NCBI RefSeq assembly: GCF_947490405.1
Contig: NZ_CANLGU010000006.1
Span: 103,410 to 167,409 of the forward strand
From: an uncultured Algibacter sp.
GTDB taxonomy: Bacteria; Bacteroidota; Bacteroidia; Flavobacteriales; Flavobacteriaceae
Reading direction: 5' to 3'
Length of the DNA stretch: 64,000 nucleotides
Each line of letters begins with the position of its first letter. The stretch's first letter is position 1. A program made the translations under genes and the position numbers. The notes under the pieces are model-generated. The model was given only the letters and a program-made list of their open reading frames with translations. It was not told the DNA's origin and did not search any database. Of the stretch, positions 49,156-58,268 are shown one piece after another.

Positions 49156-50196
49156 ATGAAACACAGAAATCAAGTATTTGATAATGTATTAGATTTAATA
49201 GGTAATACCCCACTTGTTAAACTTAATAGAATAGCTTCCAAGTTTAAAGGTAACTTTTATGCAAAAGTAGAATCCTTTAACCCAGGACACTCATCCAAAG
49301 ACAGAATAGCACTTTACATTATAGAAGAAGCCGAAAAAAAAGGTATTCTATCACCTGGTGATACTATTATAGAAACAACTTCTGGTAATACAGGATTTAG
49401 TATAGCTATGGTGAGTATTATTAAAGGTTATGATTGTGTATTAGCAGTAAGTTCTAAATCATCGCCAGATAAAATAGACATGTTAAAAACAATGGGGGCT
49501 AAGGTTTATGTTTGTCCTGCTCATGTAAGTGCAGACGATCCAAGGTCTTATTATGAGGTTGCAAAACGTCTACATGCAGAAATAAAAGGTTCTGTTTATA
49601 TCAATCAATACTTCAATCAATTAAACATTGATGCACATTACAAATCTACAGGCCCTGAAATCTGGGAGCAAACTAAAGGAAAGATAACGCACTTGTTAGC
49701 ATGTAGCGGAACAGGTGGAACCATTTCCGGAACAGCTAGGTATTTAAAAGAGCAAAATCCTGATGTAAAGGTTATAGGAGTTGATGCTTTTGGTTCTGTC
49801 ATAAAAAAATATCATGAAACTAGAGAGTTTGATGAAAAAGAAATTTATCCCTATAGAATCGAAGGTTTAGGTAAAAACTTGATACCTACAGCTACAGATT
49901 TTGATGCTATCGATGAATTTATAAAGGTAACTGATGAAGATAGCGCGCACACAGCAAGATTAATTGCTAGAACAGAAGGTATGTTTGTAGGTTATACTTC
50001 AGGTGCAGTTACGCAGGCTTTATTGCAATTAGGAGAAGAAAATCGTTTTAAGAAAGATGATTGTGTAGTGGTAATATATCCTGATCATGGTGCCAGATAT
50101 ATGAGTAAAGTTTATTGTGATAAGTGGATGAACGATCAAGGATTCTTTGATAGTGTTAATGAAGCTGCAGCTCAAAGCATACAATACATAAAATAA
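49156..50196 (+). CDS. PLP-dependent cysteine-synthase/CBS-family enzyme, probably cysteate synthase (CapA)
   Basis: [27 protein letters not shown]; directly upstream of a CapB-like gene. Confidence 0.75.
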
Positions 50197-50216
50197 GACA
50201 TTTTTAAATATACTTT

Positions 50217-50262
50217 AAGAGACGAATTTTTGCTTCGAAGTAAAAAAATCGTCTCTTTTTTT
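50217..50262 (+). terminator. Intrinsic terminator
   Basis: AAGAGACGA...TCGTCTCTTTTTTT. Confidence 0.7.
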
Positions 50263-50313
50263 GTTTTATCAATAATTGAGCATCAAAAATTATGTTCAAA
50301 CCAGATAAATATT

Positions 50314-50321
50314 TAATTTTG
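50314..50321 (+). promoter_or_regulatory. -7 promoter element upstream of the capB-like gene
   Basis: TAATTTTG matches TAnnTTTG. Confidence 0.5.
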
Positions 50322-50447
50322 CAGCAACTAACTAGAATAATAAGAGCTTATTTGTTTTCCTTAAAAGAAAGTTGAGTTATTTTCTTAAAAAGCCTTTCCA
50401 AATATTTAGTTACGACTTAAATTAATAGCAATAAGATTATTATATAA

Positions 50448-51707
50448 ATGAAAGATTTATTCGAAAAAATTTATAAAGACAAAGGACCTCTAGGTAAATG
50501 GGCATCTCAAGCTGAAGGTTACTTTGTATTTCCTAAGTTAGAAGGAGAAATTTCAAATCGCATGAAATTTCAAGGAAAAGATGTTATTACTTGGAGTATA
50601 AATGACTATCTAGGTATGGCAAACCACCCAGAAGTTAGAAAGGTTGATGCTGAAGCTGCTGCGCAATATGGTTCTGCATATCCAATGGGAGCGAGAATGA
50701 TGTCTGGTCATACAGATTTACATGAAAAACTTCAAAATGAATTGGCCGATTTTGTAAGTAAAGAAGCTGCTTATCTTTTAAATTTTGGTTATCAAGGCAT
50801 GGTTTCAACTATCGATGCTTTGGTTGCTAAAGATGATATTATTGTTTATGATGTTGATGCACATGCGTGTATAATTGACGGTGTGCGTTTGCATATGGGG
50901 AAGCGTTTTACTTATAAGCATAATGATGTTGAAAGTTTAGAGAAGAATTTAGAACGTGCTACTAAAATGGCTGAACAAACTGGCGGAGGAATTCTAGTAA
51001 TTTCTGAAGGTGTTTTTGGGATGCGTGGTGAGCAAGGACGTTTGAAAGAAATTGTAGCTTTAAAAAAGAAATTCAATTTTAGATTGTTTGTTGATGATGC
51101 TCACGGGTTTGGAACTTTAGGAGCTACAGGAGCAGGAGCAGGAGAGGAACAAGGTGTTCAAGATGATATTGATGTATATTTTGCAACATTTGCAAAATCT
51201 ATGGCAAGTACAGGTGCTTTTATTGCTGGAGATAAAGAAATTATTGATTATTTAAAGTATAATTTACGTTCTCAAATGTTTGCAAAATCTTTGCAAATGC
51301 AATTAGTGGTTGGTGCACTTAAGCGTTTAGAGATGCTTAAAACAATGCCTGAATTAAAAAAGAATTTATGGACAATTGTTGATGCATTACAATCTGGTTT
51401 AAAAGCTCGTGGTTTTGATATTGGAACAACACAAAGTTGTGTAACACCTGTATATTTAAAAGGAAGTATTCCTGAGGCGATGGCCTTAGTAAAAGATTTA
51501 CGTGAAAATTACGGAATATTCTGTTCTATAGTAGTTTATCCTGTAATACCTAAAGGATTAATTCTATTAAGAATGATTCCTACAGCTACGCATACTTTGC
51601 AAGATGTTGAAGAAACATTAGATGCATTTGATGCTATTAGAGATCGATTAGATAACGGGACTTACAAGCGCCTATCTGCAGCTTTAATGGCAGCAATGGG
51701 TGAGTAA
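50448..51707 (+). CDS. Alpha-oxoamine synthase, probably cysteate-fatty acyl transferase (CapB/CfaT, SPT-like)
   Basis: NDYLG, SGHT, EGVFGM, DDAHG, TFAKS; N-terminus KGPLGKWASQAEGYFVFPKLEG recalled as Flavobacterium CfaT type. Confidence 0.8.
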   Translation: MKDLFEKIYKDKGPLGKWASQAEGYFVFPKLEGEISNRMKFQGKDVITWSINDYLGMANHPEVRKVDAEAAAQYGSAYPMGARMMSGHTDLHEKLQNELADFVSKEAAYLLNFGYQGMVSTIDALVAKDDIIVYDVDAHACIIDGVRLHMGKRFTYKHNDVESLEKNLERATKMAEQTGGGILVISEGVFGMRGEQGRLKEIVALKKKFNFRLFVDDAHGFGTLGATGAGAGEEQGVQDDIDVYFATFAKSMASTGAFIAGDKEIIDYLKYNLRSQMFAKSLQMQLVVGALKRLEMLKTMPELKKNLWTIVDALQSGLKARGFDIGTTQSCVTPVYLKGSIPEAMALVKDLRENYGIFCSIVVYPVIPKGLILLRMIPTATHTLQDVEETLDAFDAIRDRLDNGTYKRLSAALMAAMGE

Positions 51708-51726
51708 TAAAAAGTATTAGAAAACT

Positions 51727-51761
51727 AAAAAATCCGATTCAATAATTGAATCGGATTTTTT
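51727..51761. terminator. Bidirectional terminator between convergent capB-like and GNAT genes
   Basis: AAAAAATCCGATTCAAT-A-ATTGAATCGGATTTTTT. Confidence 0.85.
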
Positions 51762-52881
51762 ATGTAATATTTTTTCGATACGTTTTCCTGCGTTTATAGA
51801 CTTCAGGGTCAAAATGCTTCCAAATTTTATGGATAGCTTCGTTGTCTTCTAACTCTGGCGTCCTAAAGCAGGTTTCGATGCCTTTTTCTTTAAATGTTTC
51901 ATAATACTCATTGAAAATAACAGCATGAACACCTTTATTTTGATAGTCCGGATGAATACCAATTAAATAGAAAATAACATCTTTACTATGTTTTTTTGCA
52001 TGTAATATATGTCTGAAACCAAAAGGAAATAATTTACCATTTATTTTTTGCAAGGCTTTAGCAAATGCTGGCATTACAATAGCAAAACCAACCATATTGT
52101 CATCTTTATCAATAACAAACTTTATATATTCAGGGTTAACAAAACTTATAAATTTCTTTTTAAAATACGCTTTCTGAACATCGTTAATAGCTACAAATGA
52201 GGATAAAGAGGCGTAACTTTCGTTAAATAAGTCAAACATTTTATCTGCATAAGGCATCACCTCTTCTGTAGTCGTTAACTTTAATGGTTTGAGTTGGTAG
52301 CGTCTTTTAATAAGCTCTTGCGCTTTTTTAAAAAATTCAGGTTTAACATTTTTAAAAGGGAATCTACTTTCAGAATATGATTTCTCAACAATATAGCCAA
52401 TAGCTTCGTAGTGTTTAATATAATATTCATGGTTATACCAAGTAATCATAGGTGCTATAGAGTTGAATCCTTCAGTCATAACACCAACCTTATCAAGATT
52501 CGAAAATCCAACAGGCCCTTCTAGATATTGTAAGTTATATGATTTTCCTATGCTTTCAACTTTATTCAAAAGGGTTTTTGATACCTCTAAATCATCAATA
52601 AAGTCAAACCAACCAAAACGCATTTTCTTTTGGTTTTGTTCTTTTACTTCAAGCCAATTAACAATTGCAGCAATTCTTCCAACAATTTCACCATTTTTAT
52701 ATGCTAAAAACATTCGTGCATCGGCATCGTTAAAAACGGGGTTTTCTTTTTTGTTAAATGTTTTAATTTCTTGACTTATAATGGGAGGAACCCAATATTT
52801 GGAGTCTTTATATAGCTTAAAAGGAAACTTAACAAATGCTTTAAGATCCTTTTTAGTTTTTACTTCTTTAAGTTTTATCAT
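51760..52881 (-). CDS. GNAT-fold acyltransferase, YghO/bacterial ceramide synthase-like
   Basis: F..FPF.LY...WVPP, VGRIAAI, RFGWFDF, GPVGFS, EGF, YN..YY, LIGIHPDYQNKG; likely start 52881. Confidence 0.75.
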   Translation of the reverse strand: MIKLKEVKTKKDLKAFVKFPFKLYKDSKYWVPPIISQEIKTFNKKENPVFNDADARMFLAYKNGEIVGRIAAIVNWLEVKEQNQKKMRFGWFDFIDDLEVSKTLLNKVESIGKSYNLQYLEGPVGFSNLDKVGVMTEGFNSIAPMITWYNHEYYIKHYEAIGYIVEKSYSESRFPFKNVKPEFFKKAQELIKRRYQLKPLKLTTTEEVMPYADKMFDLFNESYASLSSFVAINDVQKAYFKKKFISFVNPEYIKFVIDKDDNMVGFAIVMPAFAKALQKINGKLFPFGFRHILHAKKHSKDVIFYLIGIHPDYQNKGVHAVIFNEYYETFKEKGIETCFRTPELEDNEAIHKIWKHFDPEVYKRRKTYRKNIT

Positions 52882-52908: not shown

Positions 52909-53931
52909 TTAATCATCAAAATCTATATCTTTCTTTTTTTGTTTTTTAATTTTTTCAGTAGGCTCAGCTTCTTTTTTTCTTTTCTTATTACTGCTCTTGC
53001 CTTTTCTATTTGCTCTTCTTTGTCCTTCGTCTTTTGCAGATGTACCATTATCAATCTCTTTGTCTTTATGGAAATCTAATCGGTATGAAGCTCCAAAATT
53101 AACACTAAATACTGATGGTGTATCTTTTGTGTTAAATGTAACAGCCGTATCTAATTGAAAATCTTTCCCCATTAAATAAGCACCTCCAAATCTAAAAAGG
53201 TTGTCAGCATAAAAATCACTTTGTATACCTTGAGTTTCTCCAAAAATAACCCATTTAGGACTAAAAGAATGTGTTAAAGTTAATATGTATTGAAAATCTG
53301 ATTGATCCGTTCCTATTCTATCTTTTATTAAGTTCATTACAAATACCCATCCACCAGAAAAGTTGTTTTGAGTTGCAACCATCACTTTTGGACTAAAACC
53401 TTCTATTCCTGTATAGGTGTAAGGATTGGGTTTGGTATCATAATTGGCACCAACATATACAGAAACTGCAGGGATTAAAGATTTCCATTTAAATTGTCGG
53501 TTAGCTTTCCAACTGTATAAGTTTGGTTTATCCTCTTCAGCATTTTTATATGGATCAAAAACTAAATACTTCGCACCTACAGCTAGAAACCTAAAGTTAG
53601 CGCGTTTATCCTCAGAAGAAAAACCTGATGTAAACGTTTTAGTATCATTTTGGTAAGTACCTTCAATATTAATTTCTAATTCTTCCAATAGCAGTCCATA
53701 ACGTGCAGCAAAATCAACGCCAAACCCTGATACTTCATAAGCTGCTGTAGGAGTTCGTTCTTCTTTTATTGTGTATGGACCAACTTCAAATTGAGCAACA
53801 TTAGTGCCGACGGAAAATGCACTGCGCGAAACTCCAGGTCTATTAGAGTTTATTACGTCAGTATACTGACAGAAAGCCTGTGTAGAAGTTAAAATTAGTA
53901 GGATTAATAAAGTAGATTTGAATGGGCTCAT
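52909..53931 (-). CDS. Outer-membrane beta-barrel 'transporter' family protein
   Basis: Signal peptide, NSNRPG...VG...Q.E motif, amphipathic strands, basic C-tail. Confidence 0.7.
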   Translation of the reverse strand: MSPFKSTLLILLILTSTQAFCQYTDVINSNRPGVSRSAFSVGTNVAQFEVGPYTIKEERTPTAAYEVSGFGVDFAARYGLLLEELEINIEGTYQNDTKTFTSGFSSEDKRANFRFLAVGAKYLVFDPYKNAEEDKPNLYSWKANRQFKWKSLIPAVSVYVGANYDTKPNPYTYTGIEGFSPKVMVATQNNFSGGWVFVMNLIKDRIGTDQSDFQYILTLTHSFSPKWVIFGETQGIQSDFYADNLFRFGGAYLMGKDFQLDTAVTFNTKDTPSVFSVNFGASYRLDFHKDKEIDNGTSAKDEGQRRANRKGKSSNKKRKKEAEPTEKIKKQKKKDIDFDD

Positions 53932-54074: not shown

Positions 54075-54341
54075 ATGGGTTTATTAAGAACCATACTTAT
54101 AATTGCATTAGTGTATTACGGAATTAAGGTTCTATCTAGAATTTTTGCGCCTTTTTTACTTAAATATGCAGCTAAAAAAGCTGAACAACGTTTTGGTGAT
54201 CAATTTGGACAGTTTAATAAAGGGCAGCAAAAGCAAGATACTCAGAAAAAAGAAGGTGAAATAACTATTGATAAAATTCCAAATACTAAAACCTCCAATA
54301 AAGATGTAGGGGAGTATGTAGATTATGAAGAAATAGAATAG
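54075..54341 (+). CDS. DUF4834-like small membrane protein
   Basis: N-terminal TM; C-terminal GEYVDYEEI. Confidence 0.8.
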   Translation: MGLLRTILIIALVYYGIKVLSRIFAPFLLKYAAKKAEQRFGDQFGQFNKGQQKQDTQKKEGEITIDKIPNTKTSNKDVGEYVDYEEIE

Positions 54342-54547
54342 ATATTTGGTTTTTACTTTCTTCTAACATCTAATATCTTTTTTGCAAAACTCATACATAT
54401 AATATATTAGTTTTGTAGATAACAACTCTTAATTTTTTTGTTTTTTTATTTATGGAAAGTTTCATTTATTGTAACCTCTACTTTATATTTACGGAATTAA
54501 GAATTTAATTTGTTAATGCTCGTAACGAGCTTTCCTAAAACTTTTTC

Positions 54548-56995
54548 ATGCAACTTTCTTTTAAAAAAGTGTTACCTCACGTTCTAGTACTACTAGGTTT
54601 TGTAATCATTTCTCTGGTGTATTTTAATCCTGTTTTAAAAGGAAAGGTTATATATCAAAGTGATATAGTACAGTATATAGGCATGAGTAAGCAGCAAAAG
54701 GATTTTAAAGCTGAAACAGGCAAGGAAACTTACTGGACAAATAGTGCTTTTGGAGGTATGCCAACTTATCAACTTGGTGCTAGGTATCCGCATAATTATA
54801 TAAAAAAGCTTGATTCTATACTGCGTTTTCTACCTAGACCAGCAGATTATTTATTTCTGTATTTATTAAGTTTTTACATATTTCTATTAGTCTTAAAAGT
54901 AGATTTTAAGCTTGCAGCTTTAGGCGCAATAGCCTTTGGTTTTTCTACGTATTTAATTGTTATTCTAGGAGTTGGTCATAATAGTAAAGCACATGCTATT
55001 GCTTACATGCCATTAGTTTTAAGTGGTATTTTGCTTGTGTTTCAAAAACGGTATATTATTGGGTTTTTACTAACAGCAGTTGCAATGGGACTTGAATTGG
55101 TGGCAAATCATTTTCAAATGACCTATTACCTCATGTTTTTAGTAATAATATTAGGTATAGCTTATTTTATTGATGCTTTCAAAAAAAAGATGTTGCTACA
55201 TTACTTTAAATCCATTGGCGTTTTAGTAGCTGCAGTCGTATTGTCTGTCGCATTAAATGCTACTAACTTTTTGGCTACTAAAGAGTATGTAAAAGAAAGT
55301 AAACGAGGCAAAAGCGAGCTAACAATTAATCCAGACGGATCCCCAAAAGAGTTAACTTCAGGATTGGATAGGGAGTATATTACGCGTTATAGTTATGGTA
55401 TAGTAGAAACATTTAACTTGTTTATTCCTCGTTTTATGGGTGGTGGAAATTCAGAAGATGTTGGGAAAGATTCTGCAACTTATGAGGCTTTTAGAAAATT
55501 AGGAGCAAGTACCATACAAGCAGCTCAAGAAGCTAAACAAGCACCAACATATTGGGGTGATCAGCCTATTGTAGAGGCACCAGCTTATGTTGGAGCAGTG
55601 ATTTTGTTTTTATTCGTATTTGCTTTGTTTTTAGTCAAAGGAAGATTAAAATGGTGGTTAGTTGGGGGTACTATTTTTTCTTGGGTTTTATCTCTTGGGA
55701 AGAATTGGTTTTTGGTTACTAATGCAAAGCCTGATAGCAACCCGATAACAAATTTCTTCATAGACTTCTTTCCTTTATATGATAAGTTTAGAGCTGTAAG
55801 TTCTATTCAAGTTATATTAGAATTGTGCATTCCTGCTTTGGCTATTTTCGGTTTGGTTAGATTGTTTAATGACTTTGAACAGAGAGCGGATAAGCTAAAG
55901 GCTCTAAAATATACTACAATCATAACTGGCGGTTTAGCTTTAGTGTTTTTACTATTTAAATCGTCATTATTTGATTTTGTAGGAGTTAATGATGGGTTTT
56001 ATCGACAAAGTTTTGTGGATGCATTGAAAACTGACAGAAAAGCTATTTTTACACAAGACACAATTCGAAGCTTGATTTTAGTCATTTTATCGGCTAGTGC
56101 TATTTATTTGTTTTTAAAGGAAAAGCTAAAAGAACAATGGGTTATAGTAGCTTTTGCTGTTTTAATTCTATTTGATTTAGTTGGTGTAGATAGGCGCTAT
56201 GTTAATAATGATGACTTTGTTTCTAGTGTTAAAATGTCTAAGCCTTTTCAAGCTAGTGAAGTAGATAAATATATTTTGAATGATAAGAGTCATTATCGTG
56301 TTTATGATTTAGTTTCTGGTCGTTCAAAACCATCTTATTTTCATAATTCACTAAATGGTTATAATGCAGCAGAATTGAGACGCTACAGGGAGGTATTCGA
56401 TTTTTACATCGCTAGAAATAATATCAATGTATTGAATATGCTAAATACAAAATACATTGTTGCTCAAGATGAAAAAGGCGCAACCTTTCCTTATGAAAAT
56501 GATGAAGCCAATGGGAATGCATGGTTTGTTAAACGCTTAGCAAAAGTAGTGTCTGCAGATGCAGAGATTAAGGCGCTAGATAGTTTGGATAATAAAAATA
56601 AAGCTGTTTACACATCACATAAAGCAGTAGAATCCTTAAAAAATATTAAATCAAATTACCAGGTTGATTCCTTATCAACTATAAGTTTAGCAGTGCACAA
56701 ACCTAATTATTTAAAATACCAATCTAATAAACCAAATGAAGGTTTTGCAGTGTTTTCTGAGATATATTACCCTGAAGGGTGGAAAACATTTATTGATGGT
56801 AACGAAGTTAGTCATATACGTGTAAATTATATATTACGCGGAATGCAAATCCCTGCAGGCAATCACGTCATAGAGTTTAAATTTGATCCAGATGTGGTTA
56901 AAACTGGAAGCAAAATCACTTTAGCAAGTTCTATTTTATTTGGTTTGCTATTAATTAGTGGTCTGTTTTATGAGTTCAAAAAAAAGAATGAATAA
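54548..56995 (+). CDS. YfhO-family (GT-C-like) membrane protein
   Basis: WTNSAFGGMP, NHFQMTYY, YWGDQP, FRAVS, FSEIYY, NYILRG; many TMs. Confidence 0.85.
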   Translation: MQLSFKKVLPHVLVLLGFVIISLVYFNPVLKGKVIYQSDIVQYIGMSKQQKDFKAETGKETYWTNSAFGGMPTYQLGARYPHNYIKKLDSILRFLPRPADYLFLYLLSFYIFLLVLKVDFKLAALGAIAFGFSTYLIVILGVGHNSKAHAIAYMPLVLSGILLVFQKRYIIGFLLTAVAMGLELVANHFQMTYYLMFLVIILGIAYFIDAFKKKMLLHYFKSIGVLVAAVVLSVALNATNFLATKEYVKESKRGKSELTINPDGSPKELTSGLDREYITRYSYGIVETFNLFIPRFMGGGNSEDVGKDSATYEAFRKLGASTIQAAQEAKQAPTYWGDQPIVEAPAYVGAVILFLFVFALFLVKGRLKWWLVGGTIFSWVLSLGKNWFLVTNAKPDSNPITNFFIDFFPLYDKFRAVSSIQVILELCIPALAIFGLVRLFNDFEQRADKLKALKYTTIITGGLALVFLLFKSSLFDFVGVNDGFYRQSFVDALKTDRKAIFTQDTIRSLILVILSASAIYLFLKEKLKEQWVIVAFAVLILFDLVGVDRRYVNNDDFVSSVKMSKPFQASEVDKYILNDKSHYRVYDLVSGRSKPSYFHNSLNGYNAAELRRYREVFDFYIARNNINVLNMLNTKYIVAQDEKGATFPYENDEANGNAWFVKRLAKVVSADAEIKALDSLDNKNKAVYTSHKAVESLKNIKSNYQVDSLSTISLAVHKPNYLKYQSNKPNEGFAVFSEIYYPEGWKTFIDGNEVSHIRVNYILRGMQIPAGNHVIEFKFDPDVVKTGSKITLASSILFGLLLISGLFYEFKKKNE

Positions 56996-58268
56996 AAAAA
57001 AGGTGCTTATCTTAACCTATTACTGGCCACCAGCAGGCGGACCAGGAGTTCAACGTTGGTTAAAATTTGTAAAGTATTTACCAGAATTTGATATTGAGCC
57101 GATTGTATTTGTTCCAGAAAACCCTAATTACCCCTTAGTTGATGAGAGTCTTGCCTCCGAAGTGTCTGAAGATATTACAGTGATTAACCACCGTATAAAT
57201 GAGCCTTATAGATGGGCTGGGTTTCTTTCAAAATCATCATCTAAAACTATAAGTAAAGGTATTATTTCTGATGAGAAAGAACAGTCTTTCATAGAGAAAG
57301 CAATGCTTTTTGTTAGAGGAAACTTTTTTATTCCTGATGCTAGGATAGGTTGGGTTAAACCTTCGGTATCATTTCTGCTGGATTATATTCAAAAAGAACA
57401 TATTGAAACTATTATTACTACAGGACCACCACATAGCGTTCACTTAATAGGATTTAAACTAAAAGAAAAATTAAATATTAAGTGGTTGGCAGATTTCAGA
57501 GATCCATGGACAACTATTGGATACCACAAAAAGCTTAAGTTGACTTCTGCTTCAAAGGCAAAGCATAAATTGCTAGAGAGACAGGTTTTAAACAATGCGG
57601 ATCAAGTTGTTGTGACAAGTTCTGTAACTAAAAAAGAGTTTCAAAGCATCACCAATAAGCCTATTGAAGTTATTACAAATGGCTACGATGATGCGGATAG
57701 TATTGATTTCAAAATGGATTCTAAGTTTTCTTTATCACATATTGGCTCATTATTATCTAAACGAAACCCGGAAGTATTATGGAGGGTTCTAAAAGATTTA
57801 ATGGAGGAGCAAACTGAGTTTTCTAATGATTTTCAGCTTAATTTTGTGGGTTCGGTTAGTGATCATGTGTTAAAATCCATCAAAAACAACAACTTAAGTA
57901 ATTGTGTTAACGAAGTGGGTTATGTTTCACATAATGAGGCTATTGTGTTTCAAAAAAAATCCCAAATATTACTCCTCATTGAAATTGATTCTGAAGATAC
58001 CCGCTCTATCATTCCAGGGAAGTTATTTGAGTATATGGTTTCTAATAGGCCTATCCTAGCTATAGGGCCAGAGAGTTCTGATGTTGAAAAAATCATAAAA
58101 GAAACGAATACTGGTCATTACTTTAATTACTCAGATTATGACTCGTTAAAAAGAATTATATTAGAGCATTACAAAGCGTTTAAAAATAACACTTTGCAAT
58201 CTTATCCAATTGGTTTGCAAAAGTATCACAGAAAGGCGCTTACAAAATCTTTAGCTAAGTTATTATAA
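56988..58268 (+). CDS. Glycosyltransferase family 4
   Basis: YYWPPAGGPGVQR, TGPPHS, DFRDPW, PGKLFEY. Confidence 0.9.
   Translation: MNKKKVLILTYYWPPAGGPGVQRWLKFVKYLPEFDIEPIVFVPENPNYPLVDESLASEVSEDITVINHRINEPYRWAGFLSKSSSKTISKGIISDEKEQSFIEKAMLFVRGNFFIPDARIGWVKPSVSFLLDYIQKEHIETIITTGPPHSVHLIGFKLKEKLNIKWLADFRDPWTTIGYHKKLKLTSASKAKHKLLERQVLNNADQVVVTSSVTKKEFQSITNKPIEVITNGYDDADSIDFKMDSKFSLSHIGSLLSKRNPEVLWRVLKDLMEEQTEFSNDFQLNFVGSVSDHVLKSIKNNNLSNCVNEVGYVSHNEAIVFQKKSQILLLIEIDSEDTRSIIPGKLFEYMVSNRPILAIGPESSDVEKIIKETNTGHYFNYSDYDSLKRIILEHYKAFKNNTLQSYPIGLQKYHRKALTKSLAKLL

Follow-up and report, generated by a model that had tools for sequence, protein, structure and literature searches.

A bCerS/YghO-family acyltransferase gene beside capAB in an uncultured Algibacter: a candidate for the N-acylation of capnine

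Background

In several systems N-acyl capnines are the active sulfonolipids: sulfobacins act on TLR4 and on the von Willebrand receptor, rosette-inducing factors switch choanoflagellates to multicellular growth, and other such lipids are linked to gliding motility. Their synthesis is described in four steps and enzymes are named for three of these, CapA/CYS, CapB/CFAT/SulA (CFAT, cysteate fatty acyltransferase) and CapC/KCR; N-acylation of capnine is the last step, and its enzyme is not named (PMC10191378, PMC11211663, PMC11525784, PMC13692747, PMC12927429). Here we analyze a gene that may fill this place. It encodes a protein of the GNAT superfamily and lies beside capA and capB in a 64,000-nucleotide stretch of DNA (hereafter 'the window') from an uncultured Algibacter sp. 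of the Flavobacteriaceae (assembly GCF_947490405.1, contig NZ_CANLGU010000006.1, positions 103,410 to 167,409); coordinates below are window positions. A preliminary description of this DNA had proposed that the GNAT protein performs the N-acylation that yields sulfobacin-type lipids, and had considered the step not firmly assigned. The literature we searched agrees on the latter point: no enzyme is assigned to capnine N-acylation in papers from 2022 to 2026, a coverage without the original reports on CapABC and on the CFAT of Flavobacterium johnsoniae.

The closest described reaction belongs to sphingolipid synthesis. The bacterial ceramide synthase (bCerS) of Caulobacter is reported to N-acylate 3-ketosphinganine (PMC11087976), and a knock-out indicates that the Bacteroides fragilis homolog BF9343_4218 does likewise (bioRxiv 10.1101/2023.05.23.541633). 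In a chemoproteomic study of bacterial lysates, a CerS homolog is described among the significant binders of a probe derived from the sulfonolipid IOR-1A (PMC9825905). The known N-acyltransferases of glycine and ornithine lipids, GlsB and OlsB/OlsF, constitute a different family (PMC10191378).

Results and discussion

A bCerS/YghO-family protein with a tandem GNAT fold

The GNAT gene occupies positions 51760-52881 on the minus strand and encodes 373 amino acids. Its open reading frame (ORF) extends to 52896; we set the start at 52881 since homologs begin with MIKLKEV. The protein is a member of the bCerS/YghO family. An alignment with Escherichia coli YghO covers its whole length (25% identity over 372 amino acids, E-value 5e-36), and so does one with a Caulobacter homolog (24% identity, E-values of 1.8e-28 to 1.9e-23, and 3e-35 with BLASTP). 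Each of three Caulobacter genomes, located via a CtrA anchor, contains exactly one such homolog, 45% identical to YghO. One of these genomes has, in order, a CerR-like gene, a small ORF, an Spt-like gene, one more gene and the GNAT homolog, the last about 2.3 kb downstream of the Spt-like gene; in another, the CerR-like gene is 8 kb away from the homolog. A sole homolog per genome, together with this Spt/CerR-type cluster, suggests that the Caulobacter protein is the ortholog of CCNA_01212.

The preliminary description had singled out three motifs as bCerS-like, and all are present: WVPP at residues 30-33, GRIAA at 68-72 and GPVGFS at 122-127. Among 112 family members, including YghO and the Caulobacter homolog, residues G68, R69, G122 and P123 are 95-100% conserved, and a larger set composed of G68-R69 (within VGRI), G122-P123, G133, G138-F139, Y153-Y154, G317 and N347 is 86-100% conserved. 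Conservation of these regions across the family therefore identifies the three motifs as true family signatures.

An AlphaFold2 model built with 25 homologs (predicted local distance difference test 84.5, predicted template modelling score 0.83) shows a tandem GNAT fold. The top Foldseek matches to this model in the PDB are a glucosamine N-acetyltransferase, the clavulanate tandem GNAT, MAB_4324, MshD, Eis2/Eis and FemX, with E-values down to 1e-11, TM-scores of about 0.6 and sequence identities of 8-13%; the glucosamine N-acetyltransferase, MshD, Eis and FemX among them are amine N-acyltransferases, and the highest-ranking matches are themselves tandem GNATs. The acyl-coenzyme A (acyl-CoA) motif Q-x-x-G-x-G/A is represented in the C-terminal GNAT domain by QNKGVH at residues 314-319. 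The protein has no hydrophobic N-terminal leader; it appears soluble, with neither signal peptide nor membrane segment. Together, the homology to YghO and the Caulobacter protein, the tandem fold and the gene context of relatives (see below) bear out its earlier description as a bCerS relative.

General profile libraries say little about this protein. Pfam gives a weak Acetyltransf_1 match in the C-terminal third and, at E-values up to 10, only Acetyltransf_7 and Acetyltransf_10 in addition; NCBIfam gives only a weak RimI match, and a sequence search of the PDB returned no match. An identity as an aminolipid N-acyltransferase of the OlsB/GlsB/OlsF type was also considered; the corresponding Pfam and NCBIfam family models are unmatched. 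Many homologs are labeled 'GTP cyclohydrolase' in NCBI and UniRef, a name to which sequence, fold and gene context lend no support.

capA and capB supply the only long-chain base

The two genes that face the GNAT gene are, judging from their sequences, clear orthologs of characterized enzymes, as the preliminary description had held. capA (49156-50196, plus strand, 346 amino acids) passes the curated equivalog model NF053679, 'cysteate synthase CapA', with 641 bits against a cut-off of 600, and matches Pfam PALP, a fold-type II pyridoxal phosphate (PLP) enzyme family, with 267 bits; its predicted activity is synthesis of cysteate from O-phosphoserine and sulfite. A paralog of 452 amino acids with C-terminal CBS domains is encoded outside the window, on contig C1 (20104-21087, minus strand) of the same genome. 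It is 54% identical to CapA, scores 465 bits against the CapA cut-off of 600 and falls just short of the cystathionine beta-synthase cut-off (485 versus 510 bits).

capB (50448-51707, plus strand, 419 amino acids) encodes an alpha-oxoamine synthase, predicted to be a cysteate fatty acyltransferase that forms 3-ketocapnine from cysteate and an acyl thioester. It is about 78% identical to the crystallized CapB of Capnocytophaga ochracea (PDB 28eh). In sequence comparisons it scores 715 bits with that protein, 577 bits with Alistipes SulA (7u7h) and 243 bits with serine palmitoyltransferases (SPTs), and it stays under the NCBIfam SPT cut-off (299 versus 640 bits). The PLP lysine is kept, with FAKSMAS aligning with K251 of SulA. 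Furthermore, (M)FAKSLQ aligns with K281 of SulA, a lysine at a position where SPT has alanine. Lys281 of SulA has been linked to cysteate acyltransferases (PMC9304779).

A search for alpha-oxoamine synthases in the source genome returned three proteins, namely CapB, a genuine Kbl (693 bits) and one that resembles BioF. No SPT was found among them, and CapB is therefore the maker of the only long-chain base. For the third named step, no CapC/KCR ortholog could be singled out in this genome, the best match among short-chain dehydrogenases/reductases (SDRs) being 33% identical. Among the other genomes surveyed, one encodes a further alpha-oxoamine synthase with 38% identity to CapB, one gene away from its true CapB ortholog.

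Relatives of the GNAT protein accompany long-chain-base synthases

We assembled about 130 loci of the family from species genomes for a phylogenetic tree with YghO and the Caulobacter homologs as outgroup. The Bacteroidota members split into clades A (support 0.997), B and C, and clade A splits further into A1, A2 and A3. The window protein belongs to A1 (support 0.97-0.99), whose 29 tips all come from genomes with CapB or a CapB-like gene. A1 includes Flavobacteriaceae (Flavobacterium, Polaribacter, Nonlabens, Aureibaculum), Chryseobacterium, a Fodinibius-like group and some members of one more family. Clade A2 is composed of Bacteroidales (Microbacter and relatives) and Ignavibacteria-like genomes; of the seven Bacteroidia genomes that encode an A2 protein, four have a true SPT and no CapB. 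To judge from its Bacteroidales relatives, B. fragilis BF9343_4218 would fall in A2 as well. Clade A3 adjoins a module of ketoacyl synthase (KAS), FabA and SDR genes, and clade B directly adjoins an SPT-like gene and a NAD-epimerase gene in several classes. Clade C is long-branched, its members being 22-27% identical to the window protein.

Gene context gives a functional reading of this family. Relatives 26-37% identical to the window protein adjoin SPT-like and NAD-epimerase genes in Ignavibacteria-like, Balneolales-like and Chitinophagaceae genomes, and those of 31-37% identity share operons with true SPT genes. These SPT-like genes score best on the NCBIfam SPT model, two of them exceeding its cut-off (674 and 677 bits), and in Flavisolibacter the GNAT and SPT genes overlap by 4 bp. 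The family is therefore identified as the acyltransferase partner of long-chain-base synthases, independently of database names. Genomes with a second, SPT-like synthase carry a clade B member or an SPT-adjacent clade A member; where CapB is the sole base synthase, the member is of A1 or clade C. Known producers of N-acyl sulfonolipids lack SPT and have a single member of the family. In F. johnsoniae and Chryseobacterium this member is of A1, the F. johnsoniae ortholog lying near the CFAT gene Fjoh_2419 and in the same 90% cluster as WP_071637020.1; Alistipes has SulA and one clade C member.

The KAS/FabA/SDR module is also seen in one Balneolales-like genus of the Fodinibius family (loci L152-L154), where about 7 kb separate an A3 member from a CapB-like gene. 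The block there contains GT2, GNAT, SDR, FabA-like dehydratase and ketoacyl synthase genes, and the nearby CapB-like protein is 50% identical to the CapB of the window. The same module flanks SPT-linked GNAT genes in two genomes of another Bacteroidia family. Its apparent role is to provide acyl chains specifically for these lipids.

Co-occurrence and adjacency with CapB

A phylogenetic profile was drawn up by searching for the GNAT protein and CapB in 301 Flavobacteriales genomes from 85 genera. Both proteins are found in 153 genomes and neither in 122; CapB occurs without the GNAT protein in 20, and the GNAT protein without CapB in six (odds ratio 156; Fisher p 4e-54, without phylogenetic correction). 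All six GNAT-only genomes owe their status to weak, divergent matches (E-values of 1e-17 to 1e-31), and every close match, that is, of the A1 type, comes from a genome that also has CapB. The GNAT gene has been lost with capB kept more often than the opposite. This asymmetry fits an enzyme that would act downstream of CapB and need its product. The preliminary description had put forward co-occurrence with capAB as a check; that with capB is strong in this order.

The GNAT gene converges on capB in about two-thirds of the sampled Flavobacteriaceae, including Flavobacterium species with capA and the S9 peptidase gene elsewhere, as well as in a single genome from a second family. Throughout 80 close loci, however, the entire block from the S9 peptidase gene through capA, capB, the GNAT gene, the outer-membrane protein gene and the DUF4834 gene to the YfhO-like gene is syntenic, and because the whole neighborhood is conserved at this shallow depth, adjacency alone says little. 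The two Flavobacterium loci inspected both have an ORF of 158-177 amino acids between capB and the GNAT gene, on the capB strand and with no Pfam match; gaps of about 700 bp in six further Flavobacterium genomes suggest the same ORF.

Layout of the locus and an outer-membrane barrel gene

The tandem arrangement of capA and capB and the convergent orientation of the GNAT gene are as first described, and so is the terminator common to capB and the GNAT gene. A hairpin at 51726-51762, with a stem of 17 pairs, a loop of 3 nucleotides and T-runs on both sides, lies between the two converging stop codons; because it scores as a terminator in both orientations, we consider this bidirectional, intrinsic-terminator-like element to be real. 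The GNAT gene, being convergent to capB, is not co-transcribed with capAB.

On its other side, a gene for an outer-membrane beta-barrel protein (52909-53931, minus strand; Pfam PF13557, Phenol_MetA_deg, 98 bits) ends 27 bp upstream of the GNAT start on the same strand, and the two genes look operonic. The barrel protein has a lysine-rich C-terminal tail. Divergent from this pair, on the plus strand at 54075-58268, are genes for a small DUF4834 protein, an 815-amino-acid YfhO-like membrane protein and a GT4-type glycosyltransferase, a block kept in most sampled Flavobacteriaceae. The expression 'sulfonolipid locus', applied to this region in the preliminary description, overstates the linkage of capA, capB and the GNAT gene: the last is convergent and seemingly operonic with the barrel gene, and its adjacency to capB is limited to Flavobacteriaceae plus the single genome of a second family.

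Proposed reaction and alternatives

Whereas capA and capB are already known genes, the GNAT protein is an acyltransferase of the bCerS family found in a lineage whose only long-chain base is sulfonated. We consider it probable that this protein N-acylates capnine or 3-ketocapnine, leading to sulfobacin-type lipids. CapA would make cysteate, and CapB would condense it with an iso-branched acyl thioester to form 3-ketocapnine. The cytoplasmic GNAT enzyme would transfer a second acyl chain, plain or 3-hydroxylated, from an acyl-acyl carrier protein or acyl-CoA to the C2 amine of 3-ketocapnine or, following reduction by a CapC-type reductase, of capnine. The product, bound for the outer membrane, would be a sulfobacin- or flavocristamide-type N-acyl capnine. 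What we infer here is the substrate, the acyl donor and whether acylation comes before or after reduction. The activity first proposed for this protein is supported to that extent by family membership, by the lack of an SPT and by co-occurrence with CapB, and is qualified by the genera that have capAB and no GNAT gene.

These genera are among the observations that weigh against N-acylation of (keto)capnine. In Gramella/Christiangramia, none of 38 species has the GNAT gene and 36 of the 38 have CapB; Gillisia and Psychroflexus have likewise kept capAB and lost the GNAT gene. The deletion is clean in two genomes (Gillisia and Gramella sp. KN1008), with 47-63 bp left between capB and the barrel gene. 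Searches of six further CapB-positive Bacteroidia genomes found no family member. Sulfobacin A has been reported from Leeuwenhoekiella parthenopeia, by mass-based dereplication only (PMC9859067), and no GNAT gene was found in the 8 kb searched around a Leeuwenhoekiella capAB locus; in a sample of 81 relatives, no genome matched the CapB of that locus above 93%. Outside Flavobacteriales, most genomes with CapB and no SPT have just a very divergent clade C member (22-27% identity). In the converse situation, three Bacteroidia genomes keep a family member, and neither CapB nor a recognizable SPT was found in them. Similarly, E. coli has YghO and no long-chain base for it to act on. YghO and these three genomes therefore indicate that the family has other substrates. 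The profile statistics are uncorrected for phylogeny, part of the joint absence of GNAT and CapB may reflect genome streamlining, and at the locus itself the GNAT gene is separated from the capAB transcript and paired more constantly with the barrel gene than with capB. As to a replacement, we inspected the capB neighbors in 20 genomes with a weak or no GNAT match and found no rival acyltransferase; the neighbors are housekeeping genes (RecN, CoaBC, BamD, FtsZ, AccC, phosphodiesterase) and sometimes an SDR gene.

Several of these observations would be accommodated if the enzyme N-acylated an amine other than (keto)capnine, whether in the amino-acid or lipoamino-acid head group of a lipid, with glycine/serine lipids and flavolipin-type lipids as examples, or elsewhere in the envelope, its place beside capB being inherited gene order without functional meaning. 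Such a role would account for members in organisms with no long-chain base or no CapB or SPT, for the persistence of capnine synthesis without the GNAT gene in Gramella, Gillisia and Psychroflexus, and for a neighborhood so syntenic among close relatives that adjacency is uninformative. We nevertheless regard it as unlikely: no close homolog occurs without CapB in Flavobacteriales, where 122 genomes lack both; relatives are operonic with SPT genes; GlsB and OlsB/OlsF belong to a different family (PMC10191378); and profile matches stop at generic GNAT and RimI models. The database name would suggest instead a generic acetyl-CoA-dependent N-acetyltransferase acting on a small molecule or protein, and the generic profile matches, together with top structural matches that use acetyl-CoA, point the same way. 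Full-length homology to bCerS/YghO, whose characterized members use long acyl chains, relatives set among lipid genes (SPT, KAS/FabA/SDR, PAP2) and the tight co-occurrence with CapB make this very improbable.

The barrel gene raises a different question. It is paired with the GNAT gene in every one of 80 close loci and likewise in all 20 Flavobacteriaceae loci sampled, even where capB is no longer nearby. The GNAT enzyme could accordingly act with the barrel and the DUF4834/YfhO-like/GT4 block on another envelope component, for example by modifying a hydrophobic compound moved by the barrel. The barrel gene and its neighbors remain intact where the GNAT gene is deleted, however, and A1-type GNAT genes outside Flavobacteriaceae lie among housekeeping genes with no barrel gene; we hold such a role to be quite improbable. 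It would also be compatible with N-acylation of (keto)capnine, because sulfonolipids are outer-membrane lipids. A reading that joins these elements is conceivable, if distinctly unlikely in all its parts: the Bacteroidota bCerS family would be split by acceptor, with A1 and C acting on sulfonated bases and A2, A3 and B on sphingoid bases, the A1 enzyme of Flavobacteriaceae would be co-transcribed with a dedicated barrel that assists in placing or moving N-acyl capnines in the outer membrane, and the GNAT-less genera (Gramella, Gillisia and Psychroflexus) would have free capnine only in their membranes, and would so constitute a natural test of the role of the second acyl chain in gliding and in the envelope.

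A candidate for the fourth step would let knock-outs tell apart what capnine and N-acyl capnine each do, and would allow heterologous production of defined sulfonolipids. The GNAT gene may also prove a better metagenome marker of sulfonolipid producers than CFAT alone, and the clade structure suggests the way in which a single acyltransferase family has come to serve sphingolipids and sulfonolipids alike. Specialists may well find the assignment plausible and unsurprising; it would still fill the one gap left in the sulfonolipid pathway.

Comparison with known systems

The closest known enzymes are the bCerS proteins of Caulobacter (CCNA_01212) and B. fragilis (BF9343_4218) and E. coli YghO. 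They are of the same family, about 375 amino acids long and with a tandem GNAT fold, and share with the window protein W-V/I-P-P, VGRI, GP...EGF, a YY pair and an invariant Asn near the C-terminus; bCerS, too, lacks a signal peptide and membrane segments. The chemistry we propose is also that of bCerS, N-acylation of the C2 amine on a base made by an alpha-oxoamine synthase. The window protein is only 23-25% identical to the proteobacterial bCerS/YghO members. Its genome has no SPT, so that the proposed acceptor, 3-ketocapnine or capnine, has a sulfonate and not a hydroxymethyl group, and the protein lies in Bacteroidota subclade A1, which is distinct from the clades linked to SPT (A2, A3 and B). 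A more distant likeness is found in the glucosamine N-acetyltransferase of Clostridium acetobutylicum (5kf1), MshD (1ozp), Eis2 (6rft) and the clavulanate GNAT (2wpw), which also have two fused GNAT domains; these enzymes use acetyl-CoA and soluble acceptors and are 8-13% identical to the window protein. On the side of the base, capA and capB of the window are orthologous to genes of the described sulfonolipid systems, CapA/CapB/CapC of Capnocytophaga ochracea and Ornithobacterium rhinotracheale, CYS/CFAT/KCR of Chryseobacterium gleum and SulA of Alistipes finegoldii. The published CapA/CapB/CapC pathway stops at capnine with no N-acyltransferase named, and to this the window adds a candidate, the GNAT protein.

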